From NCBI GenBank assembly GCA_965223855.1, contig CBDCXM010000009.1:2193054-2257053 (forward strand): a DNA stretch of 64,000 nucleotides, in the 5' to 3' direction. Position numbers and translations under genes: made by a program. The notes beneath the pieces are model-generated. The model saw nothing but the letters and a program-made list of their open reading frames with translations. It did not search any database and was not told the origin of the DNA. Shown here piece after piece: positions 29,910 to 51,157 of the stretch (positions are counted from its first letter, which is position 1; every line of letters starts with the position of its first letter). Source of the stretch: Candidatus Multivoradales bacterium. GTDB taxonomy: Bacteria; Acidobacteriota; Thermoanaerobaculia; Multivoradales; JAHEKO01.

Positions 29910-30563
29910 GTGGCCACCATGGGACAGCTTCTGGCGGAAACCTGCCGGCTCAGCCTGCTCACGGGGGTCGATCAACTGTTCCTCGACTTCGGCTTCGAGG
30001 CGTGCGCGGGCGTCGACGAGGCGGGGCGCGGCGCGCTGGCGGGGCCGGTGGTCGCCGCGGCCGTCGTCGTCGATCCTGCGGTGACGGTGCCGGGCGTCGA
30101 CGACAGCAAGGTGCTCTCGGCCGAGGAACGGGCTCGACTCGCCACGGCGATCCGGCGCTCGGCGCGCGGATCGGCGGTCGTCGCGGTCTCCGCGGCGCGC
30201 ATCGAGCAGGTGAACATCCTCGAGGCGACGAAGCTGGCGATGTCCCGCGCCCTGGCCGAGGTCAGGCCGCGGCCCGACTGCGCCCTCGTCGATGCGGTGC
30301 GGCTGGAGACCGACTTCCCGGCTCTGGGCCTCGTGCGCGGCGACGGGGTCAGCTACAGCGTGGCGAGTGCCTCCATCCTCGCCAAGTACGAGCGGGATCG
30401 ACGGATGATCGAGCTCGACGAGCGCTACCCGGTGTATGGGTTCGCGCGCCACAAGGGGTATGCGGCGGCGGAGCATCTCGAGGCGCTGCGGCGCTACGGC
30501 CCCTGTCCTGAGCATCGCCTGACGTTCCGGTCGGTGCTGCCGCGCGAAGGGGAGGTGAACTGA
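29910..30563 (+). CDS. rnhB: Ribonuclease HII
   Basis: 'CAGVDEAGRGALAGPVVAAAVVV', 'DDSKVLSAEERARL', 'VDAVRL...GDGVSYSVASASILAKYERDRRM'. Confidence 0.9.
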   Translation: MATMGQLLAETCRLSLLTGVDQLFLDFGFEACAGVDEAGRGALAGPVVAAAVVVDPAVTVPGVDDSKVLSAEERARLATAIRRSARGSAVVAVSAARIEQVNILEATKLAMSRALAEVRPRPDCALVDAVRLETDFPALGLVRGDGVSYSVASASILAKYERDRRMIELDERYPVYGFARHKGYAAAEHLEALRRYGPCPEHRLTFRSVLPREGEVN

Positions 30564-33328
30564 TGGCAAGTCGGCAGAGAGTGATCCAGAGCGCCGAGAA
30601 GCTGGTGGCTCGCGGACGGATCCAGGCGGCGATCGACGAGTACCGCAAGGTGCTCGACCGGCATCCGAACGACACCAGCACCCTCAATCGGGTCGGCGAT
30701 CTCTACGCCCGCCTCAACCGGATGCCCAAAGCGATCGAGCTGTTCCAGCAGACCGCGGAGAGCTTCGCCCGCCAGGGCTTCTTCGTGAAGGCGATCGCGA
30801 TCTACAAGAAGATCATCCGCCTCGATCCGGGGCAGATCCGCGCTTACGAGAGTCTGGCGGATCTCTACCATCGCCAGGGGCTGACCAACGACTCGATCGC
30901 GCAGTACCAGGTGGTCGCCGACTACTACGAGAAGCATGCCGATACCGAGGCGGCGATCGACGTCTACTACAACATGGTGACGATCGAGCCGGGCAACCCG
31001 ACCCGCCGCCTCCAACTCGCCGGCATGCTGGATCGCGCCGACCGCAAGCCGCAGGCGTTGGAGCAGTACTACGAGATCGGCTCACTGATGCTCGAGCACT
31101 CGCGTGGCGATGACGCACTTCGGGTCTTCAAGGAGGCCCTCGAGGTCGATGCGTCCAACCTCGACTTCGTGCGCAAGGCGATGGGGGCGCTCGCCGGCGA
31201 GGGCTTCGACGCACTGAGCCGGGCGCTGCTCGAGGCGGCGATCGAGAAGAACCCGCAGGCCAAGGCGCTGAGGATCGAACAGCTCGATCCGAGTCCCGAG
31301 GTGGCAGCGTCGGCGCCTCAGCCGAGCGAGGTGGCGAGCGTCGAGGAGCCCGCCGCCGAGGAGCCGGCGGTCGACGAGACGATCGACGAGGTCGCCGAGG
31401 ACGAAGCGGAGCCTGCTCGCGAGCCGCGTGAGGAGGCGCCGGAGACCGTCGGGGACGAGGCGGCCGAGGAGGAGACGCCGGACGCGGCGATCGAGGAAGA
31501 CGCGGAGGTCGTCGCTAGCGAAGAGACCTCGATCGAGGAGCCCGAAGACACACCGGCGGCGCTCTCCGAGCCCGTCGAGACAGCGAGTGACGACGGTGCC
31601 GCCGATCTCGAGTTCGACCTTTCCGAGATCGCCGACCTCGCGGGCGGGATCGATCCGATCGTCGAGCCGGCGACGAAGGAGGAGACCACGGCTCCCGCCG
31701 CCGAGGCAACCGAGGAAGAGGCGGGCCTCGTTCTCGATCTCGACGAGGCCGAAGCAGGAGGGTTCGAACTCGAGGACGAGACGGAAGAGGAACGGTCGTC
31801 TGCAGCCGCGGAGGACAGCTCGCCGGCAGTCGAGGACGCCTCCCGAGAGGCGCCCCTCACCGCGCTCGAACTGGAGCTCGCCAACGAGCTGGAGGCGGTG
31901 AGGGAGGAGCTGCGGCCGGCGGCCGGAGCGGAGACGATTCGTGGCGCTGGTGACGATGCCGCCGCAGAGCAGAGCGAGGCCGCCGAGACCGTGGCCGAGA
32001 AGATCGTCTCCGAGGACATCGTTTCCGAGGACGAGGAGAAGGTGCGCAAGCAACTCGTCGAAGCGGAGGTGCTGTCGCGCTACGGCATGGACGTGATGGC
32101 GGTCACGGTGCTCGAGAAGATTCTCAAGGACGAGCCTGCCCATCGCGAGGCGCTGGCGCGGACCGTGCTCCTCCAGGTGAAGCTCGACCGGATGGACGAG
32201 GCTCTCGTAGGAGCCAACCAGCTCGCCGATCTGGTTGCGGCCGAAGGGGAGACCGAGACCTGGGGGGCGCTGTGCCACGTCCTGGACGAGAAGGGCTTCC
32301 GGCTGGAGGAGGGGCGGTTCGTAGGCGAGGTCGTCGAGGTAGCGGAACCGGAGCCCGAAGCCGAGGTCGAGCCCGAAGCTCGGGCCGAACCGGAAGAGCA
32401 GCCCGCCGCTCGAGAAGAGTTCTCGCTCGACCAGATCGTCGAGGAGGTAGAGGTCGAGGCGCGCGAGTCGCGCAAGCCGGTTCAGTCGTTGGACGTGCTC
32501 GCCGAGGTGATCCAGGAGATCGAAGGCGAGTCCGACTCAAAGGGCGCCGACGAGGACGAGCGCTGGTTGGAAGAACTCGATGCGGAGGAGGCCGCCGTCT
32601 CGGACGAAGACGCGACGTCCAGGGTGGCCGACGACGAGCGTGCAGCCGAAGTGGCGCCTGCCGCCGATTCCGGGTCGGCGGAGTCACTGGCCGAAACCCC
32701 GGCATCCGAGGCCTCGCCTCCGGCCGAGGAAGCCGCACCGCCGGCGGTACCGCAGTCGCCGTCCGTGCCGACGATCGACCTGCCTCCCGGGATCGAGGCG
32801 CCGAGCCCCGACGAGGGTTTCGTGGACCTGGCGGGCGAGCTCGAACAGGAGCTGGCGAGAGAGGTCGGCGAACTCAGCGATGAACTCGAGTCCGGCATGC
32901 GGGAGCAGTCGCTCGAGGACATCGTCGAGGGGTTCCGCCAGGGGATGGCGGAAACGCTGTCCGACGAGGACTTCGACACCCATTTCAACCTCGGCGTTGC
33001 CTACAGCGAGATGGGGCTGACCGACGAGGCGATCGGCGAGTTCCAGATGGCCGCCAAGGATCCTCGTTACCTGGTTCAGAGCTGCTCGCTGCTCGCGAGC
33101 TGCTTCGTCGAGAAAGGCTTCAACGATCTCGCCATTCAGTCCTACGAGACCGGCCTCGCCTCTCCGGTGCTGGAGGAGGACGAGCGCCTCGGGCTCCTCT
33201 ACGAACTCGGCTCCCTGCTGGTGGCGACGGGTGAGCCCGAGGCCGCCCGCGAGAAGTTCCTCGAGATCTACGGCACGAACTCCAACTACCGCGACGTCGT
33301 CGCCCGTCTCGAAGAGCTGCGGGAGTAG
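30563..33328 (+). CDS. TPR-repeat protein with a roughly 500-aa acidic low-complexity central linker
   Basis: N-terminal TPR-like helices over about 230 aa ('AIELFQQTAESFARQGFFVKAIAIYKKIIRLDPGQIRAYESLADLYHRQG...'). An E/A/P/D-rich region runs about 31.27-32.85 kb. The C-terminal TPRs are 'HFNLGVAYSEMGLTDEAIGEFQMAAKDPRYLVQSCSLLASCFVEKGFNDLAIQSYETGLA'. The start overlaps the rnhB stop (ATGA). Confidence 0.7.
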   Translation: MASRQRVIQSAEKLVARGRIQAAIDEYRKVLDRHPNDTSTLNRVGDLYARLNRMPKAIELFQQTAESFARQGFFVKAIAIYKKIIRLDPGQIRAYESLADLYHRQGLTNDSIAQYQVVADYYEKHADTEAAIDVYYNMVTIEPGNPTRRLQLAGMLDRADRKPQALEQYYEIGSLMLEHSRGDDALRVFKEALEVDASNLDFVRKAMGALAGEGFDALSRALLEAAIEKNPQAKALRIEQLDPSPEVAASAPQPSEVASVEEPAAEEPAVDETIDEVAEDEAEPAREPREEAPETVGDEAAEEETPDAAIEEDAEVVASEETSIEEPEDTPAALSEPVETASDDGAADLEFDLSEIADLAGGIDPIVEPATKEETTAPAAEATEEEAGLVLDLDEAEAGGFELEDETEEERSSAAAEDSSPAVEDASREAPLTALELELANELEAVREELRPAAGAETIRGAGDDAAAEQSEAAETVAEKIVSEDIVSEDEEKVRKQLVEAEVLSRYGMDVMAVTVLEKILKDEPAHREALARTVLLQVKLDRMDEALVGANQLADLVAAEGETETWGALCHVLDEKGFRLEEGRFVGEVVEVAEPEPEAEVEPEARAEPEEQPAAREEFSLDQIVEEVEVEARESRKPVQSLDVLAEVIQEIEGESDSKGADEDERWLEELDAEEAAVSDEDATSRVADDERAAEVAPAADSGSAESLAETPASEASPPAEEAAPPAVPQSPSVPTIDLPPGIEAPSPDEGFVDLAGELEQELAREVGELSDELESGMREQSLEDIVEGFRQGMAETLSDEDFDTHFNLGVAYSEMGLTDEAIGEFQMAAKDPRYLVQSCSLLASCFVEKGFNDLAIQSYETGLASPVLEEDERLGLLYELGSLLVATGEPEAAREKFLEIYGTNSNYRDVVARLEELRE

Positions 33329-33336
33329 CGCCTGGC

Positions 33337-34452
33337 GTGATTGAAGATCGCAAGGTCGCGTGGGCGGTCGCGGCCGGGATCGCACTGTTCCTCATCGCCC
33401 TCCTGTTCTCCGAGAAGGTGCAGCGGGAGCTGCGGCCGGAGCTCGTCGGTGCGCACGTCGGTATCGAGATCGAGGGCAGCGGCGTGGCGCGCGTCGGGAC
33501 GGTCGAGGTCACTGCGGGCACGGCGGCGACTCTTCACGCCGTCCTCGAGGGACGGAAGCGCTCGGGAGAGGCGATCTACTACAGCGAAGCCTCGGCGATC
33601 GAGCTCGACGGCAAGCGGGTGGAAGAGTCGTCGATCGAGCCGTGGCCGGGGCCCGAGGAGGTGCGGATCCTCTGGTTCTCGGTCGAGGGTCCGCGGCCGC
33701 TCGTGGAGCTGCGCGGGGAAGATGGTCTCGAGCGGGTTCGCTTTCAGGAGGTCTACCGCTCCGACTGGCCGCGCGGGTGGTCGATTCCCGCGAGTCTCAA
33801 GCCGGCGCGCGCCAACTGGACGGCGGAGGTCCGTGCTCTGCGCGGAGATCCGTTCGGCACCCAGCGCTACCAGGTCCGGGTCGAACTCTTCGGCCAGGCG
33901 AGCCAGCTCGTGCCGCTCGCGAGCTTCGATTCTGCGGGGGTCGACGAGGTCATCACGCTGGGACGAGCCTTCCCGACCCTCGTCGCGACGCTCCCGGAGC
34001 GCCTCGCTCTGGCGTCTCGTGTCTTCGGGCTGACCCAGGTCCGCTGGGGTGATTCGCCCCCCGAAGCCGCCGTCACGGTCCTCCAGTCGTGGTTCGAGAG
34101 CGATCTCGCCTACTCGCGCGTCCTGCTGCTTCGGCGGATGCTCGATCGGGCGGGAGCGCGTCTGGAGTCGCTCGAGTGGACCGCCGTCGACCTCGCGGCG
34201 GGACCCGACTGGAATCCCGACGGGGAACAGGGCGCGGTGGGCCCCGGGGACCTTCTGCGCGCCGGAGACCGCGTGGTCGTCCTGTTCGAGGACCGGGGAA
34301 CCGCCGGCCGGCTCGATCTCGATGACCTCTGTTTCGACTTCGAGGACGGCGCCGATGTCGTTCGACTGGGCGAGATATTCTCCGGCGAAGGTCTGGTGGA
34401 GCATGCGGCGTTGCAGCCGTCGGCGGCCCGGACGGGCGAGGAGGACGTGTGA
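33337..34452 (+). CDS. Hypothetical protein with an N-terminal membrane anchor
   Basis: 371 aa. N-terminal TM 'VAWAVAAGIALFLIALLFS'. No motif recognised in the remainder. It lies 9 nt after the TPR gene and overlaps the next gene start (GTGA), which suggests co-transcription. Confidence 0.5.
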   Translation: MIEDRKVAWAVAAGIALFLIALLFSEKVQRELRPELVGAHVGIEIEGSGVARVGTVEVTAGTAATLHAVLEGRKRSGEAIYYSEASAIELDGKRVEESSIEPWPGPEEVRILWFSVEGPRPLVELRGEDGLERVRFQEVYRSDWPRGWSIPASLKPARANWTAEVRALRGDPFGTQRYQVRVELFGQASQLVPLASFDSAGVDEVITLGRAFPTLVATLPERLALASRVFGLTQVRWGDSPPEAAVTVLQSWFESDLAYSRVLLLRRMLDRAGARLESLEWTAVDLAAGPDWNPDGEQGAVGPGDLLRAGDRVVVLFEDRGTAGRLDLDDLCFDFEDGADVVRLGEIFSGEGLVEHAALQPSAARTGEEDV

Positions 34453-38202: not shown

Positions 38203-38244
38203 TACGAACATCTTCGTTGACAACTACGAAGACTTTCGTGTAAT
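38203..38244 (+). promoter_or_regulatory. Tandem dyad operators overlapping a consensus -35/-10 promoter upstream of blaI (candidate BlaI autoregulatory site)
   Basis: Two inverted repeats 'TACGAA-N4-TTCGT' (38203-38218 and 38225-38239), centre-to-centre about 22 bp. They overlap 'TTGACA' (38217-38222), a 16-nt spacer and 'TGTAAT' (38239-38244). The -10 element ends only about 8 nt before the blaI ATG (38253), which implies a leaderless or near-leaderless transcript. Confidence 0.6.
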
Positions 38245-38252
38245 CTGCCCGC

Positions 38253-38642
38253 ATGAACGAGATCCGCCGCAAACCGACCGAGTCCGAGCTGCGCATCCTG
38301 CGAGTGCTGTGGAGGCAGGGACCTTCCTCGGTGCGCGACGTCCACGAGGCCCTGCGCGCCGAGCACGAGGTCGGCTATACGACCGTCCTCAAGCTGCTCC
38401 AGATCATGGCGGAGAAGGGGTCGGTGACCCGCGACGACAGCCGGCGGGCCCACATCTACGCGGCCGCCGAGCCTGCCGATGCCACCAAGCGGCGGTTGGC
38501 GGGCGACCTCGTCGAGCGGGTGTTCGAGGGATCGGCGCGCGATCTGCTCCTGCACGCCCTCGGCTCGAGCGAGCCGTCGGCCGAGGAGCTCGAGGCGATG
38601 CGCGATCTGATCGACCGCTTCGAGAAGGGGGAGACGTCATGA
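38253..38642 (+). CDS. blaI: BlaI/MecI/CopY-family transcriptional repressor
   Basis: 'MNEIRRKPTESELRILRVLWRQGPSSVRDVHEALRAEHEVGYTTVLKLLQIMAEKGSVTRDDSRRAHIYAA' shows the Penicillinase_R winged helix. The stop overlaps the next start (ATGA). Confidence 0.85.
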   Translation: MNEIRRKPTESELRILRVLWRQGPSSVRDVHEALRAEHEVGYTTVLKLLQIMAEKGSVTRDDSRRAHIYAAAEPADATKRRLAGDLVERVFEGSARDLLLHALGSSEPSAEELEAMRDLIDRFEKGETS

Positions 38643-40492
38643 TGCCCACGGACGGCACGATCGAGGCGCTCGGTTGGGCGCTTCTGCACTCCGTGTGGCA
38701 GATCGCCGCACTCGCCCTCGTGGCGGCCGTCTCGCTCTCGTTCCTGCGTCGACCTGCGACGCGGTATCTCTTCGGCGTCGGAATCCTGGTGCTGATGCTC
38801 GCGGTCCCGATGGCGACCTTCGTCGCCGGTCTCGACGGCGCCTCCGCACCTGCCGTTGGGATGGTGGCAGACGCCGGGTCGGCATCCGAGGCTACGGCGT
38901 CGACGCCGCTCTCCCGAAGAGTCGAGCCGCCCAGCCCCGGCCTGGTACGGGGCCTGATGCCCGGCCTGATGTCGGCGCGAGTGCTCACCACGGCAGTGCT
39001 CGTCTGGTGCTGTGGAGTCGCGCTCCTCGGCCTGCGCGCGCTCGGAGCGCTGTGGTGGGTTCGCAGGCTCGAGCGGGCCTCGGCCGAGCTGCCGAGGCGC
39101 GCTCTCGAGCTGTGTCGTGACGTCGAGCACCGGCTCGGTCTGCGGCGTGCGGTGCACTACGCCGCGAGCAGGGAGGGAGAGGGGCCGGCGGTGATCGGAG
39201 TGCTGCGCCCGATGGTCCTGCTGCCGATGGCGGCGCTGGCGGGCCTGCCCCCAGAGCAGTTGCGGCTCATCGTCGCTCACGAGCTGGCTCATATCCGACG
39301 CTGGGACTCGCTCGTCAACCTCGGTCAGGTGGTCGTCGAAACGCTCCTCTTCTACCATCCGGGCGTCTGGTGGCTGAGTCGGAGGGTTCGCGGCGAGCGG
39401 GAGCTCGCCTGCGACGACCTGGTGCTCCACGGCGGCGGGCGGGAGCGTGCCGTGGACTACGCTCGGGCGCTCAGCTCGCTGGCCGCCCTGCCCCGCACTC
39501 CCGTCCTCGCGCCCGGGGCCCGAGGCGGCTCGCTGACGAGCCGCGTCGAGCGCATTCTCGGCGTCGATCGGGGCGGTTCCGGTGCGCGTGGGCTGAGGCT
39601 GGTCGCGGCCGCTGCCGGGCTGGTGGTGGCGCTCTTCGCCACGTCCGGCCTCGCGACGCCCCAGAACCCTCTGCCTGCGGACCGGCACCCCGCCGTCTCG
39701 CTGACGCCCTCGGGTGGAGAAGAGGTGCGCTTCGAGGCCGCGACGGCCTCGTCGGCCAGGAGCGACGAGGAGCCGGGCGCAGAGGCTACGCGCGAGGAGC
39801 CTCGTGAGCGACCGGCAGACGGCGAGCGGAGGGATCGCGACGCGGCGCGCCGCGCCTCCGCGGAGTCCCGCCCCGACGGCGCCACGAGCTACATCGACGA
39901 GCTCCGCGCCGCCGGACTCGATCCCGACGTCGATCAACTCATCGCCCTCAAGGTGAACGGCGTCACCGGCCGGTACGTGAGGGCGCTCGCGGCGGCCGGA
40001 TTCCGGCCGGGCCCGGACGACCTGATCGCCATGCGGGTACATGGTGTCGATCCCGAGTTCGTCGCGGCCGTGCGGGACGCCGGCTACCAGCCGTCGAAGG
40101 ACGATCTGGTGGCGCTGCGGGTCCACGGCGTCGATCCGGCTACCGCCACGACGCTGCGGGCCGCAGGATTCGAACCGACTCTCGACGATCTGGTCGCGCT
40201 GAGGGTCCACGGTGTGGATCCGGCGACCGCGACGGCCCTTCGAGCCGCCGGATTCGAACCGACCCTCGACGACCTCGTCGCGCTCCGCGTCCATGGCATC
40301 TCACCGTCTCTCGCCGCGGCGCTCGCGACCGCCGGTCTGGCAGAGGACCTCGATGACGTAGTCGCCGCCGGCATTCACGGCGTGACCCCTGAGTTCGTCG
40401 ACCTCGCCCGCAGTCACGGCTTCGACGACCTCGATCTCGATCAACTGATCCAACTCCGCCGCCTCGGTGTCCTCGACACCGGCGACCGGTGA
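38639..40492 (+). CDS. BlaR1/MecR1-like signal-transducing peptidase (M56) whose extracytoplasmic sensor is replaced by a novel 28-aa tandem repeat domain
   Basis: N-terminal TMs, HEXXH 'IVAHELAHIRRWD' and 'ETLLFYHPGVWW' typical of Peptidase_M56. A further TM 'LRLVAAAAGLVVALFATSGL' follows. The extracytoplasmic region then carries about 7 repeats such as 'DDLVALRVHGVDPATATTLRAAGFEPTL'. There is no penicillin-binding (SxxK) sensor domain. Confidence 0.8.
   Translation: MMPTDGTIEALGWALLHSVWQIAALALVAAVSLSFLRRPATRYLFGVGILVLMLAVPMATFVAGLDGASAPAVGMVADAGSASEATASTPLSRRVEPPSPGLVRGLMPGLMSARVLTTAVLVWCCGVALLGLRALGALWWVRRLERASAELPRRALELCRDVEHRLGLRRAVHYAASREGEGPAVIGVLRPMVLLPMAALAGLPPEQLRLIVAHELAHIRRWDSLVNLGQVVVETLLFYHPGVWWLSRRVRGERELACDDLVLHGGGRERAVDYARALSSLAALPRTPVLAPGARGGSLTSRVERILGVDRGGSGARGLRLVAAAAGLVVALFATSGLATPQNPLPADRHPAVSLTPSGGEEVRFEAATASSARSDEEPGAEATREEPRERPADGERRDRDAARRASAESRPDGATSYIDELRAAGLDPDVDQLIALKVNGVTGRYVRALAAAGFRPGPDDLIAMRVHGVDPEFVAAVRDAGYQPSKDDLVALRVHGVDPATATTLRAAGFEPTLDDLVALRVHGVDPATATALRAAGFEPTLDDLVALRVHGISPSLAAALATAGLAEDLDDVVAAGIHGVTPEFVDLARSHGFDDLDLDQLIQLRRLGVLDTGDR
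39932..40460 (+). repeat. In-frame 84-nt tandem coding repeats (28-aa units) within the BlaR1-like gene
   Basis: Units start at 39932, 40016, 40100, 40184, 40268... Units 3 and 4 encode identical peptides but differ at many synonymous positions. Confidence 0.8.
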
Positions 40493-40503
40493 AAGGAACC
40501 CCG

Positions 40504-41523
40504 ATGACCCGCCTCTCCGCCTCGCTCGCCGCTGCCCTTCTGATTCTCGCTACCCTCCCGCTCGCCGCAGACCACGACTGGTCGAGCGGCTCCTGGGAGC
40601 TCGAGCCCGACGAGCCGGGCGAGGTGCGGCTCGAGCTGACCTCCGGTCGGGCCGGCCACCGTTCGCACTGGAACTCCGACATCGAGGTCGCTGCGTTCAC
40701 CGGCCTCGACCTCTCGGTCTCAGGCCGCCGCGACGTCGTTTTCACCCTCGCGCGCGACGCCGGCACGGTCGAGTTCCGCGGTGAGATGCGGGGCGAGCGT
40801 GGGGAGGGGAGCTACAGCTTCTCGCCCGACGAGGGCTACGAAGAGAGGATGGCGAGCCTCGGTTTCCGCATCGACGACGACGACCTCTTCGCCTACGCGC
40901 TGCACGACGTCTCGCTCGACTTCGCCCGCCGGATGCAGGAGGCGGACATTCGCGGTCTCGACGGCGACGCGCTGCTGGCGTTCCGCATCCACGGCGTGGA
41001 CGGGGCCTATGTCGACGGCATCCGCTCCGCCGGGCAGGCGGTCGACGACAGCGACTCCTGGATCGCCTTCCGGATTCACGGCGTCTCCGCCGAGATGATC
41101 CGCCGGCTGAGAGCCTCGGGCTACGATCCCGACGACGACGACCTCATCGCGCTGCGGATTCACGGCGCGAGCCCGGAGTGGGTGAGCGAGCTCGCCGCGC
41201 ACGGCTACGATCATCTCGATCTCGACGACATGGTCGCGTTCCGCATCCACGGCGTGACGCCGGAGTTCATCGGCCGGATCCGCCAACTCGGCTATGAAGG
41301 GCCTGCGGCCGACCAGCTCGTCGCGATGCGGATCCACGGCGTTACCGCCGACTTCATCGATCAGATCCAGAAACTCGGCTTCGACCGTCCCGGCACCGAC
41401 CAACTCGTCGCCATGCGGATTCACGGCGTGACTCCCGACTACATCAGCGACCTGCGCGGTCGTGGGCTCGAGAATCTGTCGATCGAGAAGCTGATCGAGC
41501 TGAGGATTCACGGGATCGACTGA
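40504..41523 (+). CDS. Secreted protein carrying the same 'RIHGV' 28-30-aa tandem repeats as the BlaR1-like sensor
   Basis: Signal peptide 'MTRLSASLAAALLILATLPLAADHD' (ATG 40504 with the SD 'AAGGAA'; the tool ORF starts at GTG 40489, overlapping the blaR stop). About 7 repeats: 'DDDLIALRIHGASPEWVSELAAHGYDHL', 'DLDDMVAFRIHGVTPEFIGRIRQLGYEGP', 'ADQLVAMRIHGVTADFIDQIQKLGFDRPG', 'TDQLVAMRIHGVTPDYISDLRGRGLENL'... Confidence 0.7.
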   Translation: MTRLSASLAAALLILATLPLAADHDWSSGSWELEPDEPGEVRLELTSGRAGHRSHWNSDIEVAAFTGLDLSVSGRRDVVFTLARDAGTVEFRGEMRGERGEGSYSFSPDEGYEERMASLGFRIDDDDLFAYALHDVSLDFARRMQEADIRGLDGDALLAFRIHGVDGAYVDGIRSAGQAVDDSDSWIAFRIHGVSAEMIRRLRASGYDPDDDDLIALRIHGASPEWVSELAAHGYDHLDLDDMVAFRIHGVTPEFIGRIRQLGYEGPAADQLVAMRIHGVTADFIDQIQKLGFDRPGTDQLVAMRIHGVTPDYISDLRGRGLENLSIEKLIELRIHGID

Positions 41524-44535: not shown

Positions 44536-45324
44536 ATGACCGACAGCCTCGACTTCAGCGATCACTTCTCCGGCCACGCCGAGCGCTACGCGCGCCACCG
44601 GCCGACCTATCCCGAGCCACTCTTCCGCTGGCTCGCCTCCCTCGCTCCGGCGTGCGGCCTCGCCTGGGACTGCGCGACCGGCAACGGTCAATGTGCCGTG
44701 GCACTCGTCGGGCACTTCGCCCGTGTCGTGGCGACCGATGCCAGCGAGAAGCAGCTCGCCGAGGCGACTCCCGTCGAAGGCGTCGAGTACAGGGTCGAAG
44801 CCGCCGAGCGGACCTCGCTCGACGACGGCAGCGTCGACCTGGTCACCGTCGCCCAGGCGCTCCACTGGTTCGACGTCGAGGCGTTCGGCAGGGAATTCCT
44901 CCGGGTCGCCCGCCCGGGGGCCGTCCTCGCCACCTGGAGCTACGGCCGCATGCGGGTCACGCCCGAGGTCGATCGAATCGTCGGCCGGCTCATGTACGAG
45001 CGCCTGGCCGGCGACTGGCCTCCCGAGCGTTCCCACGTCGAGAACGGCTACCGCGACCTCGCCCTGCCGATCGAGCCGATCGCCGCGCCGAACTTCGAGA
45101 TGACCGCCGAATGGAGCTCCCGCCAGGCGCTCGACTACATCGGCACCTGGTCGGCGGCGCGCCGGTTCGCGACTCGCGAGGGCTTCGATGCGGTGGAGGA
45201 GGTGGAAAGCGAGTTGCGGAGAGCCTGGGGAGACGGCCTCAGGACGGTGCGCTGGCCGTTGGCGTTCCGGGTGGGAGCCGCAGCGCGGCCCGGCGCTACG
45301 GCGTCGCCGGCTCGATCGGGATGA
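44536..45324 (+). CDS. Class I SAM-dependent methyltransferase (Methyltransf_11-like)
   Basis: 'LAWDCATGNGQCAVALVGHFARVVATDASEKQL', 'VDLVTVAQALHWFD', 'PGAVLATWSY'. This is the C-terminal part of tool ORF 42895..45324; the real ATG is at 44536. Confidence 0.75.
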   Translation: MTDSLDFSDHFSGHAERYARHRPTYPEPLFRWLASLAPACGLAWDCATGNGQCAVALVGHFARVVATDASEKQLAEATPVEGVEYRVEAAERTSLDDGSVDLVTVAQALHWFDVEAFGREFLRVARPGAVLATWSYGRMRVTPEVDRIVGRLMYERLAGDWPPERSHVENGYRDLALPIEPIAAPNFEMTAEWSSRQALDYIGTWSAARRFATREGFDAVEEVESELRRAWGDGLRTVRWPLAFRVGAAARPGATASPARSG

Positions 45325-46231
45325 GTCCGGCCGCCCACCTGCCGACGGCGGCGAGGACCGCCTCGTCCTCGGGGCGGATCGAGTCGAAGTACGCCGGCGC
45401 CTCGTAGTAGGCCGCGAGGACCAACGGGGCACGCTCAGGCGGCCAGACGACGGCGACATCGTTGTACTTGTTCGTCATCGTCTCGGCGACGCCCGTGCCG
45501 GTCTTGTCGCCGCTTCGCCACTCCTCAGGTAGTCCGGCCCGCAGGCGCCGACGGCCGGTACGAGTGGCGACCATCCACTCGGCGAGGGTCTCCCGTGAGG
45601 TGGAGGAGAGCAGGTCGCCGGTGACGAACCGGGCGACCGAGTGCGCCATGGCGTGCGGCGTCGTGGTGTCCCGGACTTCGCCGGCCGGGACGAGGTTCAT
45701 CTCCGGTTCGTAGCGGTCGAGGCGGGTGGTGTCGTCGCCGCTCTCGCGCAGCAGGCGGGTGAAGCCCTCGGGGCCGCCCAGGAGCTCGAGCAACAGGTTG
45801 GCGGCGACGTTGTCGCTCGTCACCTGGGTCGCCTCCGCCAGCTCGAGGACGGTCATGCTTCCCTGCTCGAGATGCTCGCTGGTGACCGGGGCGTAGAAGA
45901 CCATGTCGCCGTCGTCGAACGGCACCGCCCGGTCGCCCGCGAGCCGTCCGGCGTCGATCTCGCGCAGGACCGCGCCGGCGAGGAGCACCTTGAAGGTCGA
46001 GCACATGCCGAAGCGGCGGTGGGCGCGATGGGTCGCCGTCTCTCCGGTGGCGGTGTCGAGCAGGCAGACTCCGAGCTTGCCGCCGGCCTTGGCTTCGAGC
46101 TCGGCCGGGGTCCGAGCGGGGGTCGGTGTGACGGTTTCGCCGAGGAGCCGGCTGGTCAGGGGCAGGCCGATGAGGCCCGAGACGAGAGCGCGGCGGGTGA
46201 GTTTCACGGCGTGCGGACGCGCGCGCTGCAC
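45296..46231 (-). CDS. bla: Class A beta-lactamase, with a Tat-like signal
   Basis: 'STFK' (S70-K73) in 'GMCSTFKVLLAGAVL', 'SDN' in 'VTSDNVAANLL', omega-loop 'RYEPEMN' (E166-N170), 'KTGTG' (K234-T-G). N-terminus 'MQRARPHAVKLTRRALVSGLIGLPL' has a twin-arginine-like 'TRRALV'. Confidence 0.9.
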   Translation of the reverse strand: MQRARPHAVKLTRRALVSGLIGLPLTSRLLGETVTPTPARTPAELEAKAGGKLGVCLLDTATGETATHRAHRRFGMCSTFKVLLAGAVLREIDAGRLAGDRAVPFDDGDMVFYAPVTSEHLEQGSMTVLELAEATQVTSDNVAANLLLELLGGPEGFTRLLRESGDDTTRLDRYEPEMNLVPAGEVRDTTTPHAMAHSVARFVTGDLLSSTSRETLAEWMVATRTGRRRLRAGLPEEWRSGDKTGTGVAETMTNKYNDVAVVWPPERAPLVLAAYYEAPAYFDSIRPEDEAVLAAVGRWAAGLIPIEPATP

Positions 46232-46232
46232 C

Positions 46233-48029
46233 TCACGAGGCGGCCTCTTCGAGCGCCGCGACGACGCCGTCCTTCGTCAGCAGCTCGCCCAGCACCAGCG
46301 GCTCTCTGCCGGGGCGGTAGAGGAGGTAGAACGGGATGCCGTAGCGACCGTGGTCGGCGAGGAACTGCGCGATCGCGTCGTCGCGGTTGGTCCAGTCGGC
46401 CTTCATCGCCACCACGCCGTGGCGCTCGAAGGCGGCATCGATCTCCTCGGTCTCGAGCACCAGCCGCTCGTTGACCTTGCAGGTGAAGCACCAGTCGGCG
46501 GTGACGTCGACGAACACCAGCCGCCCTTCGGCGGCGAGCGCCTCCGCCTCGGCGCGGTCGAAGGTCACCCAGTCGAGCAGGGCGACCGTCTCAGCCGCGG
46601 CGAGCTTGCGGCCGGCGTCGCGGCCGGAGGCGGCGAAGTAGAGCGCCGCGACGATCGCCAGCAGGGTGCCGACATGGGCGAACCGGCGACGCCCGCCCGG
46701 CCGGTTGGCGAGCCAGACGAAGAGCGCCATCGCCAGCAGCGCCAGTTGCAGGAAGGCGAGCCGCTCCGGCGGCAGCTGCGCGGCGAGCACGTAGAAGAGC
46801 CACACCGCGGCGGCGGCGAGCAGGAAGCCCATCACCGTCCTGAGCGTCGCCATCCAGGCTCCGGGCTTCGGCAGCACTCGCGCCGCGCCGGGGAACGCGG
46901 CCAGCAGCAGGTAGGGGAGCGCCATGCCGACGCCGACCGCCGTGAAGACGGCGAAGATCACCGCCGGAGGCTGCGCGAGGCCGAAGGCGACGGCGGTGCC
47001 GAGGAACGGCGCCGAGCACGGCGTCGCCATCAGGGTGGCGAAGAAGCCGGAGGCGAGGTGTCCGGCGAGGCCCTCGCCGCCCCCGCCCCCACCGCGGGCC
47101 AGCCACGAGGGGAGCGGGATCTCGAACAGCCCCCACAGGTTGAGCGTGAAGAGGACGACGATGATCGCCAGCGCCGCGACGAAGGTCGGCTCCTGGAACT
47201 GCACCCCCCAGCCGACCGCCGCGCCTGCCGACTTGGCGAGCACGGCGGCGGCGGCGAGCGCCCAGAACGACAGCAGGATGCCGAGCGCGGTCGACAGAGC
47301 TCCCAGGGTGACGTGGCGCCGCCCGTCGCCGGCGCTCTTCACCAGCCCGAGGACCTTGAGCGACAGCACAGGCAGCACGCACGGCATCGCGTTGAGGATC
47401 AGGCCGCCGAGGACCGCCAGCATCAGGATCCAGCCGAGGCTGGGGTCGGACCCTCCGGAACCGCCGGAGGCTGCGACCGGGGAGGCATCCGCAGCGCGCG
47501 GCAGCGCTCCCTCGATGGGAGTGCCGCCCGCGCCCACCGTCAGTGCGACGCTCTGTCGGCTGGTCACCGGCGCGAGGCAGGAGCGGTCGTCGCACGCCTG
47601 GTAGGTGAGGGCGACCGCGGCCTCGTAGTCGCCGTTGGTGGCGGTCGGCGGCACGGTGAAGCGGACGAGGATCGCCACCTCCCCCTCGTAGACCGACAGC
47701 GGCTGCTCTTCGAAAGCGAAGGTGGCGAGCTTGCCCGGCGGGTAGTCGATGCCGTCGAGGGTCCACCCTTCCGGCAGATCGACCCTGGCCTCGGTCGGGA
47801 TGAGGTACTCGAAGGTCGGCTGGTGGCTGTTGGTGTGCCAACCCTCCTCGATCGTCATCCAGACGCCGATCGCGCCGGAGCTGCCGGCGTCGAAGGCGGT
47901 CGCCTCGGGAGCCGCACGCACCGTCGCCTTCTCGACGAGGAAACTCTGCGCTCCCAGCAGGGTCGCGACGAGGGTGAGGGGGACGAGCGCGAGGGCTCGG
48001 GCGAGCAGGCGGCGGAGCACGGCGGACAT
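46233..48029 (-). CDS. dsbD: Thiol:disulfide interchange protein DsbD
   Basis: Signal peptide plus DsbD-alpha ('LTYQACDDRSCLAP'), CcdA-like membrane core ('LNAMPCVLPVLSLK', 'ATPCSAPFL'), C-terminal thioredoxin 'DWCFTCK'. The real ATG is at 48029; the tool ORF extends artefactually to 49193, antisense to the aminotransferase. Confidence 0.85.
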   Translation of the reverse strand: MSAVLRRLLARALALVPLTLVATLLGAQSFLVEKATVRAAPEATAFDAGSSGAIGVWMTIEEGWHTNSHQPTFEYLIPTEARVDLPEGWTLDGIDYPPGKLATFAFEEQPLSVYEGEVAILVRFTVPPTATNGDYEAAVALTYQACDDRSCLAPVTSRQSVALTVGAGGTPIEGALPRAADASPVAASGGSGGSDPSLGWILMLAVLGGLILNAMPCVLPVLSLKVLGLVKSAGDGRRHVTLGALSTALGILLSFWALAAAAVLAKSAGAAVGWGVQFQEPTFVAALAIIVVLFTLNLWGLFEIPLPSWLARGGGGGGEGLAGHLASGFFATLMATPCSAPFLGTAVAFGLAQPPAVIFAVFTAVGVGMALPYLLLAAFPGAARVLPKPGAWMATLRTVMGFLLAAAAVWLFYVLAAQLPPERLAFLQLALLAMALFVWLANRPGGRRRFAHVGTLLAIVAALYFAASGRDAGRKLAAAETVALLDWVTFDRAEAEALAAEGRLVFVDVTADWCFTCKVNERLVLETEEIDAAFERHGVVAMKADWTNRDDAIAQFLADHGRYGIPFYLLYRPGREPLVLGELLTKDGVVAALEEAAS

Positions 48030-48083
48030 CGGCGGGGAGGATCGTAGCAGGGCGGAGTCGTTGTATTCTCCCCGCTCGGCCCC

Positions 48084-49295
48084 GTGCCGCCCCTCCTCAT
48101 GAGACTTTCCCGACGCGCCCGAGGAATCGGTGAATCCGCCACGCTGGGAGTGGCCCGCAAGGCGCGTGAGCTGCGGCAGCGCGGCGAGCCGGTGATCGAC
48201 CTGAGCGCGGGCGAACCCGACTTCCCGTCGCCGCCGGTGGCGGTCGAGGCCGCCCGGCAGGCGCTGGCGGACGGCTTCACCCGCTACACGCCGGCCGCCG
48301 GCATCCCGGCGTTGCGCGAGGCGCTCGCCTCCAGATACCGCGATGACTTCCGGGCGCCGTGGAAGGCAGAGGACGTGATGGTCTCGGTGGGCGGCAAGGG
48401 GGCGCTGTTCGAGCTGGCACTCGCCATCCTCGACGACGGCGACGAGGTCGTGCTCCCTTCGCCTTACTGGGTCAGCTTCCCCGAGCACATCCGCTTCTGC
48501 GGCGCAGTGCCGGTGACCGTCCCCACCCGCGTGGAGGACGGCTTCCGCATCCACGCGGCGCCGATCGTCGAGGCGCTCGGTGAGCGCACCCGCATGGTGC
48601 TCCTCAACTCGCCGTGCAACCCGACCGGCGGCATCGTCGGCGCCGAGGAGCTGAGGACGATCGTCTCGGCGGCGGCTGAGCGCGGCATCCTCGTCCTCGC
48701 CGACGAGACCTACGAACACTTCGTCTACGGCGACGAGCCGTTCGCCAGCGCCGCCGCGCTGGCGGCCGAGTTTCCCGAGACGGTGATCCTGTGCGGCTCG
48801 TTCTCGAAGACCTACGCCATGACCGGCTGGCGGCTCGGCTACGCCTTCGCTCCGCCGGAGGTGCTCGGCGCGGCGCTCGACATCCAGAGCCACGCCACGT
48901 CCAATCCGACCTCGTTCGCGATGGTCGGCGCGGTGGCGGCGCTCGAGTCGGCGGGGCCGGACGTCGAGGCGATGGTGGCCGAGTTCCGGGAGCGTCGCGC
49001 ACTCGTCAGTACGGCGCTCGACGAGATGCCCGGGGTCGCCTGTCGTCCGCCGGACGGAGCCTTCTACGTCTTTCCCGACGTCGCCGACTGTTTCGCTCCA
49101 GGGCGGAACGGCTCGGTGGAGCTGTCTGAGTACCTGCTGGAAGAGGCCAGGGTCGCCGTAGTGCCAGGAGTCGCCTTCGGTGCCGACGAGCACATCCGCC
49201 TGTCGATCGCCGCTTCGCGCGACGATCTGCGCGAGGGGCTCGACCGGATCGCCGGAGCCCTCAGCCGCCAGAGACCCGAGCCCCTGAGTCGCTGA
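48084..49295 (+). CDS. aspC: Aspartate/aromatic aminotransferase (class I PLP)
   Basis: 'IDLSAGEPDFPSP', 'LPSPYWVSFPE', PLP-lysine region 'SFSKTYAMTGWRLGY', 403 aa. Confidence 0.9.
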   Translation: MPPLLMRLSRRARGIGESATLGVARKARELRQRGEPVIDLSAGEPDFPSPPVAVEAARQALADGFTRYTPAAGIPALREALASRYRDDFRAPWKAEDVMVSVGGKGALFELALAILDDGDEVVLPSPYWVSFPEHIRFCGAVPVTVPTRVEDGFRIHAAPIVEALGERTRMVLLNSPCNPTGGIVGAEELRTIVSAAAERGILVLADETYEHFVYGDEPFASAAALAAEFPETVILCGSFSKTYAMTGWRLGYAFAPPEVLGAALDIQSHATSNPTSFAMVGAVAALESAGPDVEAMVAEFRERRALVSTALDEMPGVACRPPDGAFYVFPDVADCFAPGRNGSVELSEYLLEEARVAVVPGVAFGADEHIRLSIAASRDDLREGLDRIAGALSRQRPEPLSR

Positions 49296-49333: not shown

Positions 49334-51157
49334 ATGCCCAGACCTCTCATGACCCGCCTCGCAGGGTGCCTGACCGCACTGTGCTTCAGCTTTCCAGGCT
49401 TGACCGCCCCCCTCGCGGCGTCCGACGACGCTCCGACCGCCGAAGAGGCTCGCGCCTTCGTCGAGGAGGCCAACCGGCGCCTCGCCGAGGTCTCCGAAGA
49501 GGCGGCGCGTGCCGCCTGGGTGCAGTCGAACTTCATCACCGGCGACACCGAGATCCTCGCCGCGCTCGCCAACGAGCGGGCGATCGCGGCGGCGATGGAG
49601 TACGCCACCGGCGCGGCGCGCTTCAACGACCTCGAGCTCGACGGCGAGACCCGCCGTCAGCTCGACCTGCTGCGGCTGGCGCTGACGATGCCGGCGCCCC
49701 GCGATCCCGAGGCGCTCAAGGAGCTGACGCAGATCGCCGCTTCGCTCGAGAGCCGCTACGGCGCGGGTCGCTACTGTCCCGACGGCGACGACTCCTGCCG
49801 CGACCTCGGTCAACTGTCGCAGACGATCGGTGAGAGCCGGGAGGTCGAGGAGCTGTTGGAGGCGTGGAGCGGGTGGCGGACGGTGTCGCCGGCGATGCGC
49901 GCCGACTACGAGCGCTTCGTCGAACTGTCGAACGCCGGCGCCCGCGAACTGGGGTTCGCCGACACCGGGGCGATGTGGCGTTCGAAGTACGACATGGACC
50001 CCGACGCCTTCGCAGCCGAGCTCGATCGCCTCTGGGCGCAGGTGAAGCCGCTCTACGACGAGCTCCACTGCTACGTCCGAGGGCTCCTCCGGGAGACCTA
50101 CGGCGACGCGGTCGATCCCGAGGGGCCGATCCCCGCGCATCTGCTGGGCAACATGTGGGCGCAGTCGTGGGGCAACGTCTACGATCTCGTCGCGCCGCCG
50201 GAGGAGGGGGAGGGCTTCGACCTGACGGCGGCGCTCCAGGCGAAGGGGGTCGACGCCCGCGGGATGGTGCGCTACGGCGAGGGCTTCTTCACCTCGCTCG
50301 GCCTCGACCCGCTGCCCGAGACCTTCTGGGAGCGGTCGCTTTTCACCCAGCCGCGGGATCGCGACGTCGTCTGCCACGCGAGCGCGTGGAACGTCGACAA
50401 CGTCGACGACATCCGCATCAAGATGTGCATCAAGATCGACGCCGAGGACTTCTCGACCGTCCATCACGAGCTCGGCCACAGCTTCTACCAGCGCGCCTAC
50501 AACACTCTGCCGTTCCTCTACCGCGACTCGGCCAACGACGGTTTCCACGAAGGGGTCGGCGACACCGTGGCGCTTTCGGTCACGCCGAGCTATCTCGTCG
50601 AGGTCGGGCTGCTCGACGAGGAACCTTCGGCCGACGCCGACCTCGGCGTCCTGATGCAGATGGCGCTCGACAAGGTCGCGTTCCTGCCGTTCGGCCTGCT
50701 GGTCGATCAGTGGCGCTGGAAGGTGTTCTCCGGCGAGATCGGGCCGGACGCCTACAACGCCGGCTGGTGGGAGCTGCGTGAGCGCTACCAGGGTGTCGCG
50801 GCGCCGACCGCCCGCAACGAAGAGCAGTTCGATCCCGGAGCGAAGTACCACGTCCCCGGCAACACCCCCTACACCCGCTACTTCCTCGCCCACATTCTCC
50901 AGTTCCAGCTTCACCGCTCGCTGTGCGACGCTGCCGGCTACGAAGGGCCGCTCCATCGCTGCTCGATCTACGGCAACGAGGCGGCGGGCGAGAAACTGAT
51001 CGCACTGCTCGACATGGGCCTCAGCCGCCCGTGGCAGGACGCCCTCGAGGCGACCACCGGACAGCGCGAGATGGACGCCACCGCGATCCTCGACTACTTC
51101 GCTCCGCTGGCGACGTGGCTCGAGGAGCAGAACGACGGCGCTTCGTGCGGCTGGTGA
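49334..51157 (+). CDS. Secreted M2-family zinc peptidyl-dipeptidase (angiotensin-converting-enzyme-like)
   Basis: Signal peptide 'MPRPLMTRLAGCLTALCFSFPGLTAPLAA'. 'HHELGHSFYQRAY' (HEXXH), a downstream 'FHEGVGDTVALSV' (third zinc ligand Glu), 'WRSKYD', and an ACE-like N-terminus 'EEARAFVEEANRRLAEVSEEAARAAWVQSNFITGDT'. Confidence 0.85.
   Translation: MPRPLMTRLAGCLTALCFSFPGLTAPLAASDDAPTAEEARAFVEEANRRLAEVSEEAARAAWVQSNFITGDTEILAALANERAIAAAMEYATGAARFNDLELDGETRRQLDLLRLALTMPAPRDPEALKELTQIAASLESRYGAGRYCPDGDDSCRDLGQLSQTIGESREVEELLEAWSGWRTVSPAMRADYERFVELSNAGARELGFADTGAMWRSKYDMDPDAFAAELDRLWAQVKPLYDELHCYVRGLLRETYGDAVDPEGPIPAHLLGNMWAQSWGNVYDLVAPPEEGEGFDLTAALQAKGVDARGMVRYGEGFFTSLGLDPLPETFWERSLFTQPRDRDVVCHASAWNVDNVDDIRIKMCIKIDAEDFSTVHHELGHSFYQRAYNTLPFLYRDSANDGFHEGVGDTVALSVTPSYLVEVGLLDEEPSADADLGVLMQMALDKVAFLPFGLLVDQWRWKVFSGEIGPDAYNAGWWELRERYQGVAAPTARNEEQFDPGAKYHVPGNTPYTRYFLAHILQFQLHRSLCDAAGYEGPLHRCSIYGNEAAGEKLIALLDMGLSRPWQDALEATTGQREMDATAILDYFAPLATWLEEQNDGASCGW

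Follow-up and report, generated by a model that had tools for sequence, protein, structure and literature searches.

Genes and control region of the locus

Three genes lie at positions 38253-41523 of the window, the whole 64-kb stretch of DNA that was analysed, and encode a BlaI-family repressor (blaI), a BlaR1-type M56 zinc protease (M56) and a signal-peptide protein, here called X. The features of the locus are as follows.

38203..38218, plus strand: candidate operator dyad 1, TACGAAcatcTTCGTt, its 3' end overlapping the -35 hexamer
38217..38222, plus strand: -35 hexamer TTGACA, read from the sequence and kept by almost all 76 homologous promoters listed
38225..38240, plus strand: candidate operator dyad 2, TACGAAgactTTCGTg, 22 bp after dyad 1 and overlapping the -10 region
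38239..38246, plus strand: candidate -10, TGTAAT or TAATCT, about 7 nt 5' of the ATG
38253..38642, plus strand: blaI, BlaI/MecI/CopY-family winged-helix repressor, 129 aa (PF03965)
38639..40492, plus strand: M56 gene
38639..39655, plus strand: membrane zinc protease domain of M56 (BlaR1-type), aa 1-339 (PF05569, phmmer, Foldseek, hydropathy)
39656..39883, plus strand: periplasmic low-complexity, acidic Pro/Ala/Glu/Arg-rich linker of M56, aa 340-415, predicted disordered
39887..40474, plus strand: tethered solenoid of M56, aa 417-612, with a half unit, six full 28-aa two-helix repeats and a terminal half
40504..41523, plus strand: gene of X; a GTG at 40489 is an alternative start
40504..40569, plus strand: signal peptide of X, aa 1-22 (...PLAA/DHD), without a lipobox (hydropathy, sequence)
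40579..40836, plus strand: beta domain of X, aa 26-111, built of five main strands (AF2, conservation)
40837..41520, plus strand: solenoid of X, aa 112-339, ending ...RIHGID, with a half unit, one degenerate and six clean repeats and a terminal half

The ATG of M56 overlaps the TGA of blaI as ATGA, and the alternative start of X overlaps the M56 stop. These overlaps and the ORF coordinates agree with the first-pass annotation, which had described a tightly coupled operon with overlapping stops and starts.

That annotation had also placed a promoter at 38217-38244, which is upheld only in part: its -35 hexamer is perfect, but the -10 is weak and a consensus scanner does not call a promoter. It is taken as real because of its conservation across 76 loci, where it is near-invariant and carries two candidate TACGAA-N4-TTCGTA operators. 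Dyad 1 includes an exact ACGAA-N4-TTCGT at 38204-38217 and recurs at the equivalent position in 74 of 76 homologous promoters; likewise, 74/76 loci carry a pair of dyads at 21-22 bp spacing that overlaps TTGACA and the -10, and these are candidate BlaI operators. The Terriglobia homologues show a dyad spacing of 21 bp and TAGTAT at the candidate -10 position. The short distance between the candidate -10 and the ATG suggests a leaderless or near-leaderless mRNA.

Repressor, protease and the shared repeat module

The blaI product belongs to the PF03965 family (E=3e-25, 89 bits against a cut-off of 22.6, aa 9-121 of 129), and its PDB matches are M. tuberculosis BlaI 2G9W (E=9e-11), MecI and BlaI. 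In the region aligned to the MecI cleavage site N101-F102, the family keeps the motif LAGDxLxRVFEGS.

The M56 protein matches Peptidase_M56 PF05569 (E=9e-32, 111 bits, cut-off 31), as BlaR1-type transducers do. HELAH at aa 214-218 (nt 39278-39292) and ExxxD at aa 255-259 (E255/D259) align to S. aureus BlaR1 and are invariant in 45 homologues. Hydropathy indicates TM1-3, a cytoplasmic gluzincin domain and TM4 at aa 321-339, a topology that places the M56 C-terminus and the signal-peptide protein X in the same compartment. BlaR1 (8EXS/8EXP) was matched by phmmer, and the top five Foldseek hits of the M56 model are all BlaR1 cryo-EM structures (prob 1.00), the TM and protease domain aligning to 8EXR with a TM-score of 0.51 and prob 1.00. 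The BlaR1 architecture proposed earlier is thus confirmed, as is the statement that the sensor is not penicillin-binding: the Pfam scan of the M56 protein returned neither PF00905 nor any beta-lactamase-type match, and NCBIfam blaR1_generic reached 80 bits against a cut-off of 400, over aa 117-278 only.

Beyond TM4, the linker of about 75 aa (pI 4.8) has AF2 pLDDT values below 50 over aa 339-411 and leads to a solenoid whose full 28-aa units span aa 431-598 and are modelled at pLDDT 93-96 with a regular helix-loop-helix pattern. In X, the solenoid, also modelled confidently by AF2, comprises clean units of 28/29 aa at aa 154-326 and a degenerate unit at aa 124-153, for a total of seven or eight, and is preceded by the beta domain with its conserved motifs RDAG and GxGxFxFxP. 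The earlier count of about seven repeats in each protein is therefore fair. Homology between the two repeat regions extends over their whole length (40% identity, E=2e-43), in line with the claim that the gene after M56 encodes a secreted protein of the same repeat, and both solenoids are acidic (pI 4.5-5.4). The repeat regions also show at the DNA level, as tandem repeats of 84 bp (in M56, at 40071-40297) and 87 bp. The first-pass annotation had missed the N-terminal beta domain of X (about 85 aa) and the disordered M56 linker.

The repeat had not been recognised as a described domain, which holds with one qualification. Neither the 28-aa unit nor the beta domain has a significant family-wide match, curated or structural, in Pfam, NCBIfam or PDB, and no Pfam or PDB relative of the X beta domain was found. 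The qualification is Pfam HHH_5 (PF14520), which matches this M56 protein at 48 bits, formally above threshold, but is absent from X; among seven M56 homologues, two lie just above the 27-bit cut-off (P0134 at 30.4 and P0143 at 31.4 bits) and five are sub-threshold or without a match. A PDB sequence search found no helix-hairpin-helix (HhH) protein. The HhH signature is a hairpin hxxhxGhGxxxAxxh with two Gly; the hairpin of the repeat reads HG[VI][TSD]P. HhH homology was rejected as motif-level only, given the lack of matches in X, in most homologues and in the PDB and the acidity of the domains. PF25859 ('MT0599'), seen in precomputed lists, was also set aside as a repeat model, its matches being faint. 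Two-helix repeat solenoids named for comparison are TALE/BurrH, mTERF, HhH arrays and designed helical repeats. The literature searched contained no description of the RIHG repeat or of the blaI-M56-X cassette.

Conservation, fused and split forms

Isocitrate dehydrogenase homologues assign the source of the window to Acidobacteriota, the nearest named hits being 'Acidobacteria bacterium' at 80% and Thermoanaerobaculia at 73%. The cassette is widespread in soil Acidobacteriota, with hosts that are mostly Terriglobia MAGs, and the family comprises over 4,500 cluster representatives and is present in at least 582 species-level genomes. In all 76 testable loci (72 of 80 from the genome collection and the four first context loci), blaI and M56 lie upstream of X, while the flanks are unrelated. 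Among metagenome loci chosen by the M56 motif, without reference to X, those encoding M56 with repeats only have X immediately downstream in 35/35 cases. The soluble repeat paralogue is accordingly kept beside M56 and BlaI, as the first-pass annotation had expected.

Beyond the first-pass annotation, many related M56 proteases were found to carry a whole X-like module, beta domain and repeats, fused C-terminally. The best 150 cluster representatives include 64 long M56+beta+repeats proteins, 26 with M56 and repeats only and 53 soluble X-like proteins. X is adjacent to the fused protease in none of seven loci (0/3 in the motif-chosen sample and 0/4 looked up separately), against 35/35 for the repeat-only form (Fisher p=3.7e-8), and none of these seven fused-type loci has a linked output gene. 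Since 6-8 repeats remain on the split protease itself, fission of the fused protein would not by itself yield the split form. The distribution of fused and split forms makes it most likely that X belongs to the sensor and acts in trans, as a soluble co-receptor. Ligand carrier, decoy and co-receptor had been offered earlier as possible roles for X; the co-receptor is now favoured, since in other lineages the protease itself carries the complete X-like module.

Proposed mechanism, related systems and alternatives

With moderate confidence, the locus is interpreted as an autoregulated proteolytic derepression switch of the BlaI/BlaR1 type, in which a periplasmic beta and RIHG-solenoid module is split between two proteins and X serves as soluble co-receptor. 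A BlaI-like dimer on the two dyads over the -35 and -10 would repress blaI-M56-X, as suggested by the sequence and its near-invariant conservation. M56 would expose its repeat-only solenoid in the periplasm on the disordered tether, and co-transcribed, secreted X would provide the complete beta and solenoid module in trans. Judging by the fused and split distribution, X may dock on the tethered paralogous solenoid or bridge to it via a ligand. By homology with BlaR1/BlaI, the liganded state would then activate the cytoplasmic gluzincin domain, whose catalytic motifs are intact, leading to a cut of BlaI in its dimerisation/linker helix and derepression of the operon. Because X, sensor and repressor would all be induced together, X dosage could feed back on sensitivity.

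Counter-points to the co-receptor role were also noted. The two acidic solenoids offer no obvious charge complementarity, transfer of the signal would have to cross a disordered linker, and the exclusive pattern of X would also be expected from a decoy needed by repeat-only sensors alone.

Inducible beta-lactam resistance through BlaI/BlaR1 is textbook knowledge. Most BlaI/BlaR1 homologues, however, sense something else, and almost none has a known signal or a structured sensor. The present locus resembles BlaI/BlaR1 and MecI/MecR1 of Staphylococcus aureus and Bacillus licheniformis in gene order (repressor, then a four-TM M56 gluzincin with HExxH and ExxxD), in an ectodomain after TM4, in paired palindromic candidate operators overlapping the promoter and in the predicted autoregulation of the operon. 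It differs in that the ectodomain is a tethered alpha-solenoid, not a PBP/class D beta-lactamase fold, in having no linked resistance gene and in a third gene that encodes a soluble paralogue of the ectodomain; as the host is diderm, sensing would also be periplasmic. The proposed logic is shared with LuxP-LuxQ, TorT-TorS and ChvE-VirA, where the signal reaches a membrane sensor through, or is modulated by, a soluble periplasmic protein encoded next to it, and with CpxP, which acts as a feedback inhibitor of CpxA. Their folds are unrelated, however, their transducers are histidine kinases and not a protease, and the partner, unlike X, is not a paralogue of the ectodomain of the sensor.

Among other members of the family, CenIR of C. 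difficile, mycobacterial BlaIR and PvmSR of P. aeruginosa combine M56 and a BlaI-like repressor without beta-lactam sensing or a transpeptidase domain (PMC13081940; bioRxiv 10.64898/2026.08.03.742534). PetR/PetP of Synechocystis is likewise an atypical pair without beta-lactam sensing, and together these pairs present the BlaIR family as a general signalling chassis (PMC13081940; bioRxiv 10.64898/2026.08.03.742534). The ectodomains of CenR, PvmS and mycobacterial BlaR are described as short, unstructured or missing, with no report of a soluble partner encoded alongside (PMC13081940; bioRxiv 10.64898/2026.08.03.742534), whereas the module predicted here is large, confidently folded in the models and found in fused and split versions. 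A 2026 preprint counts a transpeptidase domain in about 6% of some 15,000 M56 proteins (PMC13081940), so a non-penicillin sensor is not unusual in itself. Non-PBP homologues of BlaR are already known as common, and the system described here is a large, coherent and uncharacterised one among them. More tentatively, the beta and RIHG-solenoid module may drive BlaR-type proteases as a new periplasmic receptor class in hundreds of Acidobacteriota species, and the split form would then be the first 'binding-protein-dependent' BlaR system, in which a soluble paralogue docks on a tethered repeat array to gate repressor proteolysis in response to a non-antibiotic soil or envelope signal.

The family, with its confidently predicted yet unclassified receptor fold, provides a large and coherent test case. 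The natural pair of fused and split forms makes the role of the partner directly testable, and the almost invariant double operator offers a ready-made reporter. Discovery of the ligand would show how a protease-type transducer is coupled to a soluble periplasmic partner and, the hosts being abundant but poorly understood soil bacteria, could bring to light a signal, from the environment or the envelope, that matters to them.

The alternative that survives best, though we judge it unlikely, is that X is the output of the switch, a periplasmic sponge or decoy made on induction that captures the ligand of the tethered solenoid or caps that solenoid, thereby protecting the cell and switching the sensor off. 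X is the sole non-regulatory gene of the operon and a paralogue of the sensor solenoid with which it would be induced, and further targets are not apparent: the 64-kb window holds two exact dyads, both at the blaI promoter, and loci totalling 834 kb contain 152 exact dyads, 150 of them within blaI promoters. Analogies are the BlaR1 sensor domain, itself related to the beta-lactam-binding proteins that BlaR1 induces, and CpxP, which feeds back on CpxA. Reading X as the output leaves unexplained, however, the absence of X beside beta-fused proteases (0/7) and why X always has the beta domain missing from the split sensor.

A ligand-specific version of the co-receptor model, by analogy with CopY and PetR/PetP of the same repressor family, would make the module a metal or pH sensor acting through a conserved His in an acidic, His-rich periplasmic protein, and is considered improbable. 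His occupies repeat position 10 in about 80% of units of X and of fused ectodomains, and mature X proteins have 13-17 His and a pI of about 4.7-5.3. The predominance of Terriglobia among the hosts also fits, as Terriglobia favour acidic soils. BlaR1/MecR1-annotated genes have been identified as indicators of low-pH soils (PMC5573673). Against this stands the Terriglobia tethered solenoid, with Gln at position 10 in 96% of units, which fits a hydrogen-bonding or structural role and not metal ligation; Cys/His clusters and known metal motifs are absent.

An arrangement with no signalling at all, in which M56 serves as a protease or scaffold anchored in the membrane and X has a structural role in the periplasm, is very improbable, as the repressor gene is invariant, its promoter bears a double candidate operator and 96% of M56 proteins are linked to BlaI (PMC13081940). 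Similarly improbable is that the repeats are genuine HhH units that sense DNA in the periplasm or outside the cell, as ComEA does, given the rejected homology. Classical regulation of beta-lactam resistance through the class A beta-lactamase at 45296-46231, to which BlaI/BlaR1 homology and a distance of 3.8 kb might point, can practically be dismissed, as M56 has no transpeptidase domain and falls far below the blaR1_generic cut-off, and the beta-lactamase gene has no operator near it, is encoded on the other strand beyond two unrelated genes and has no flanking counterpart in the 80 genome loci and four first context loci. The suggestion that this gene and the nearby secreted peptidases are regulatory targets was likewise dropped, the exact dyads of the window being restricted to the blaI promoter and none of the window neighbours being conserved beside the cassette in those same loci.

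One full dyad outside blaI promoters was recorded, a single case at L058:1046, upstream of a gene for a Kelch-like secreted protein.

A BlaR1-type chassis under a putative paired operator

The cassette consists of three ORFs, whose coordinates agree with their placement in the first-pass annotation:

38253-38642, plus strand: blaI, ORF; Pfam Penicillinase_R, E=3e-25
38639-40492, plus strand: M56 gene, ORF; Pfam Peptidase_M56, E=9e-32, aa 21-289
40504-41523, plus strand: X, ORF from ATG 40504; signal peptide by hydropathy

The blaI TGA and the M56 ATG overlap as ATGA, and the X ATG lies 12 nt past the M56 stop, with a GTG at 40489, overlapping that stop, as an alternative start. Hydropathy assigns TM1-3, the protease loop and a fourth TM (aa 321-339) to M56, and the signal peptide with which X begins is of the classical kind. 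HELAH (aa 214-218) and E255/D259 of M56 align to the HExxH and ExxxD of S. aureus BlaR1, and the top five PDB matches of its AF2 model (Foldseek) are all BlaR1 cryo-EM structures. Together with the Peptidase_M56 match, these features bear out the BlaR1-type architecture proposed from the sequence alone. NCBIfam is consistent with Pfam on the cassette proteins, and its beta-lactam-sensor equivalog scores M56 at 80 bits versus a cut-off of 400, covering aa 117-278 only, in keeping with the earlier suggestion of a sensor other than a penicillin-binding domain. The chassis is assigned, with high confidence, to a BlaI/BlaR1-type proteolytic derepression switch.

The blaI promoter is almost invariant across loci (TACGAAgattTTCGTTGACAnTACGAAnnnnTTCGTAGTAt). 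In 74 of 76 loci, two TACGAA-N4-TTCGTA dyads overlap its -35 and -10, at a dyad-to-dyad distance of 21 bp in homologues and 22 bp in the window. Within 834 kb of loci, 150 of 152 exact dyads fall within blaI promoters, and the 64-kb window holds only two, at 38204-38239. The window -10 is weak, and the promoter was missed by a generic sigma-70 scan. In the stretch 38239-38255, only about 7 nt separate the end of the candidate -10 from the blaI ATG; this leaves no room for a Shine-Dalgarno, and the blaI mRNA is probably leaderless. Only one full dyad was found away from a blaI promoter, at 1043-1060 of the homologous locus L058: a secreted Kelch-like repeat ORF (1191-2156) follows it after about 145 nt, and blaI after 1.45 kb. 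It may mark an added regulon member or be due to chance.

The RIHG solenoid and its beta domain

The 28-aa repeat reported earlier in both M56 and X is real: M56 carries six full units (aa 431-598) with a half unit on each side, X combines six clean units of 28/29 aa with one degenerate unit and half units, and the alignment of the two arrays spans their full length at 40% identity (E=2e-43). M56 homologues contain 4 to 9 units. The AF2 model of X, built on a 42-sequence alignment (pLDDT 89, pTM 0.77), comprises the signal peptide, a beta domain (aa 28-108) and about eight helix-loop-helix units. In the M56 AF2 model, the repeat array reaches pLDDT 93-96, with about 75 residues of pLDDT <50 between TM4 and the array. 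The unit consensus is xDKLIAFRIHGVTPEFIxxLRxxGYxxx in X and, slightly unlike it, ADxLIAMKVQGVTPEYVRxLRxxGLxPD in Terriglobia tethered arrays. Position 10 is His in X, fused ectodomains and the window M56; in tethered arrays of Terriglobia, 96% of the units have Gln there. Positions 8 and 9 differ in parallel with this His/Gln contrast, R/I against K/V (families A1 and A2). Recent duplication of units is suggested by tandem repeats at the DNA level, including the nearly identical R3/R4:

Window 40071-40297: 84-bp DNA tandem repeat in M56; units R3/R4 almost identical as protein
Window 41233-41445: 87-bp DNA tandem repeat in X

The repeat has no family-wide match in Pfam, NCBIfam or the PDB, and X has zero Pfam or NCBIfam matches. 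A PDB profile search returned only a designed helical-repeat protein, and Foldseek against the PDB gave zero matches with E<0.001, upholding the initial impression that the repeat lies outside described domains. The window M56 passes the Pfam HHH_5 threshold with 48 bits, a match treated here as a motif-level coincidence: X has none, most homologues are sub-threshold or negative, no HhH protein occurs among the PDB matches (phmmer), the hairpin is missing its second glycine, and these are acidic periplasmic domains.

Fused and split systems and the role of X

HMMs were built for three parts, the beta domain (N), repeats (C) and M56 (M); run on the best 150 of 4,515 representatives, they yielded 53 soluble X-like proteins (N+C), 26 of the window type (M+C), 64 long proteins with N+C after at least 200 residues, and 7 fragments. 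Since 46 of the 64 long proteins match the M profile, with Pfam M56 in five others scanned, the whole X-like module is a protease ectodomain in many lineages. Gene neighbourhoods complement one another: an X-like ORF is absent at four fused-type loci (BlaI plus M56-N-C), and X stands directly downstream of M+C at two further loci. For an independent sample, 80 metagenome loci were picked by an M56 peptide motif, with X playing no part in the choice; here X is downstream at 35/35 M+C loci, 0/3 M+N+C loci and 0/14 loci of other M56 types, in line with a conserved tie between M+C proteases and a soluble X. The presence and absence of X at M+C versus fused loci (35/0 versus 0/7, the fused set being 3 sampled plus 4 looked up separately) gives a Fisher p=3.7e-8.

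A beta-domain-bearing module occurs exactly once per system, whether in cis or in trans, and for this reason the most economical reading, of the Rosetta-stone type, is that X would belong to the sensor. The input module would be the beta domain plus the RIHG solenoid, with X as a soluble co-receptor, associating with the tethered paralogous solenoid or bridging to it via a ligand. At the homologous locus L095 (3752-5972), two tandem X-like ORFs downstream of the M56 gene represent a duplicated partner.

The main rival makes X an induced decoy or sponge, which would suit the operon's sole non-regulatory gene but accounts neither for fused systems doing without X nor for the beta domain always present in X. 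Within the sensor reading of X, a metal or pH role for its position-10 His is possible, though weakened by the prevalence of Gln in Terriglobia tethered arrays, His prevailing elsewhere. The X domain and the M56 repeat domain are both acidic (pI 4.5-5.4), and DNA sensing is very unlikely. Beta-lactam sensing is likewise very unlikely, as no operator accompanies the class A beta-lactamase gene (45296-46231, minus strand), which also fails to recur beside the cassette in the 84 loci searched; the exact dyad search of the 64-kb window found none there or at the DsbD-type gene. The first-pass proposal that this beta-lactamase and several nearby secreted peptidases could be targets is not supported, given that no window neighbour is conserved. 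The beta-lactamase has an RR-containing leader and lies directly downstream of the DsbD-type thiol:disulfide interchange protein gene (46236-48095, minus strand).

Known systems and spread of the cassette

A 2026 preprint on C. difficile CenIR counts about 15,000 M56 proteins in 254 architectures, with a transpeptidase domain in only about 6%, a BlaI gene near 96%, and a C-terminal domain that is not identifiable in the commonest class (PMC13081940). P. aeruginosa PvmSR and mycobacterial BlaIR have no sensor domain (bioRxiv 10.64898/2026.08.03.742534), whereas the present cassette has a beta+solenoid receptor. PetR/PetP of Synechocystis is another BlaI/M56-related system. Given this survey, PvmSR and mycobacterial BlaIR, a BlaR without a PBP domain is already known. 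The core of the earlier switch interpretation, a BlaI/BlaR1-type module with a non-PBP repeat sensor, stands; its targets do not, and its context proves more ordinary than suggested, non-PBP M56 proteins being common. The literature search gave no description of the beta+solenoid receptor, of its architectures (fused and split) or of an obligatory soluble paralogue, and all three appear undescribed.

The cassette constitutes a large family, and the role of its partner protein X can be put as a clear hypothesis open to testing. Clustering at 90% leaves X with more than 3,193 relatives, and those with a source name are all 'hypothetical protein' except one mislabelled IspH. An exhaustive profile search of 1.84 billion cluster representatives gave 4,515 matches at E<=1e-3, of which 1,328 reach E<=1e-30, and at least 582 matching stretches in a species-representative genome collection encode a relative, the Acidobacteriota class Terriglobia forming the majority among the 80 matches listed. 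blaI and the M56 gene lie upstream of X on the same strand at 76/76 loci with sufficient upstream DNA (76 of 84), so that the soluble paralogue beside M56 and BlaI recurs in other genomes. The isocitrate dehydrogenase encoded in the window shares 80% identity with that of an 'Acidobacteria bacterium' and 73% with that of Thermoanaerobaculia, which places the host in Acidobacteriota. Identity to Terriglobia homologues is 37-41% for the window M56, 43-51% for X and 51-62% for BlaI; with these values and a host among Acidobacteriota outside Terriglobia, the cassette appears common to several Acidobacteriota classes.

Cassette flanks vary between loci, and none of the window's neighbour genes recurs beside the cassette in the 84 loci searched. 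PadR regulator and MacB_PCD/FtsX-type permease genes adjoin it at three unrelated homologous loci (L085, L091 and L092), which may reflect the mere abundance of such genes in Acidobacteriota. Elsewhere in the window, isocitrate dehydrogenase and a large TPR protein (30563-33328) flank a 371-aa ORF without a Pfam match (33337-34452), and 49334-51157 encodes a full-length bacterial angiotensin-converting enzyme homologue (Peptidase_M2, E=5e-220).
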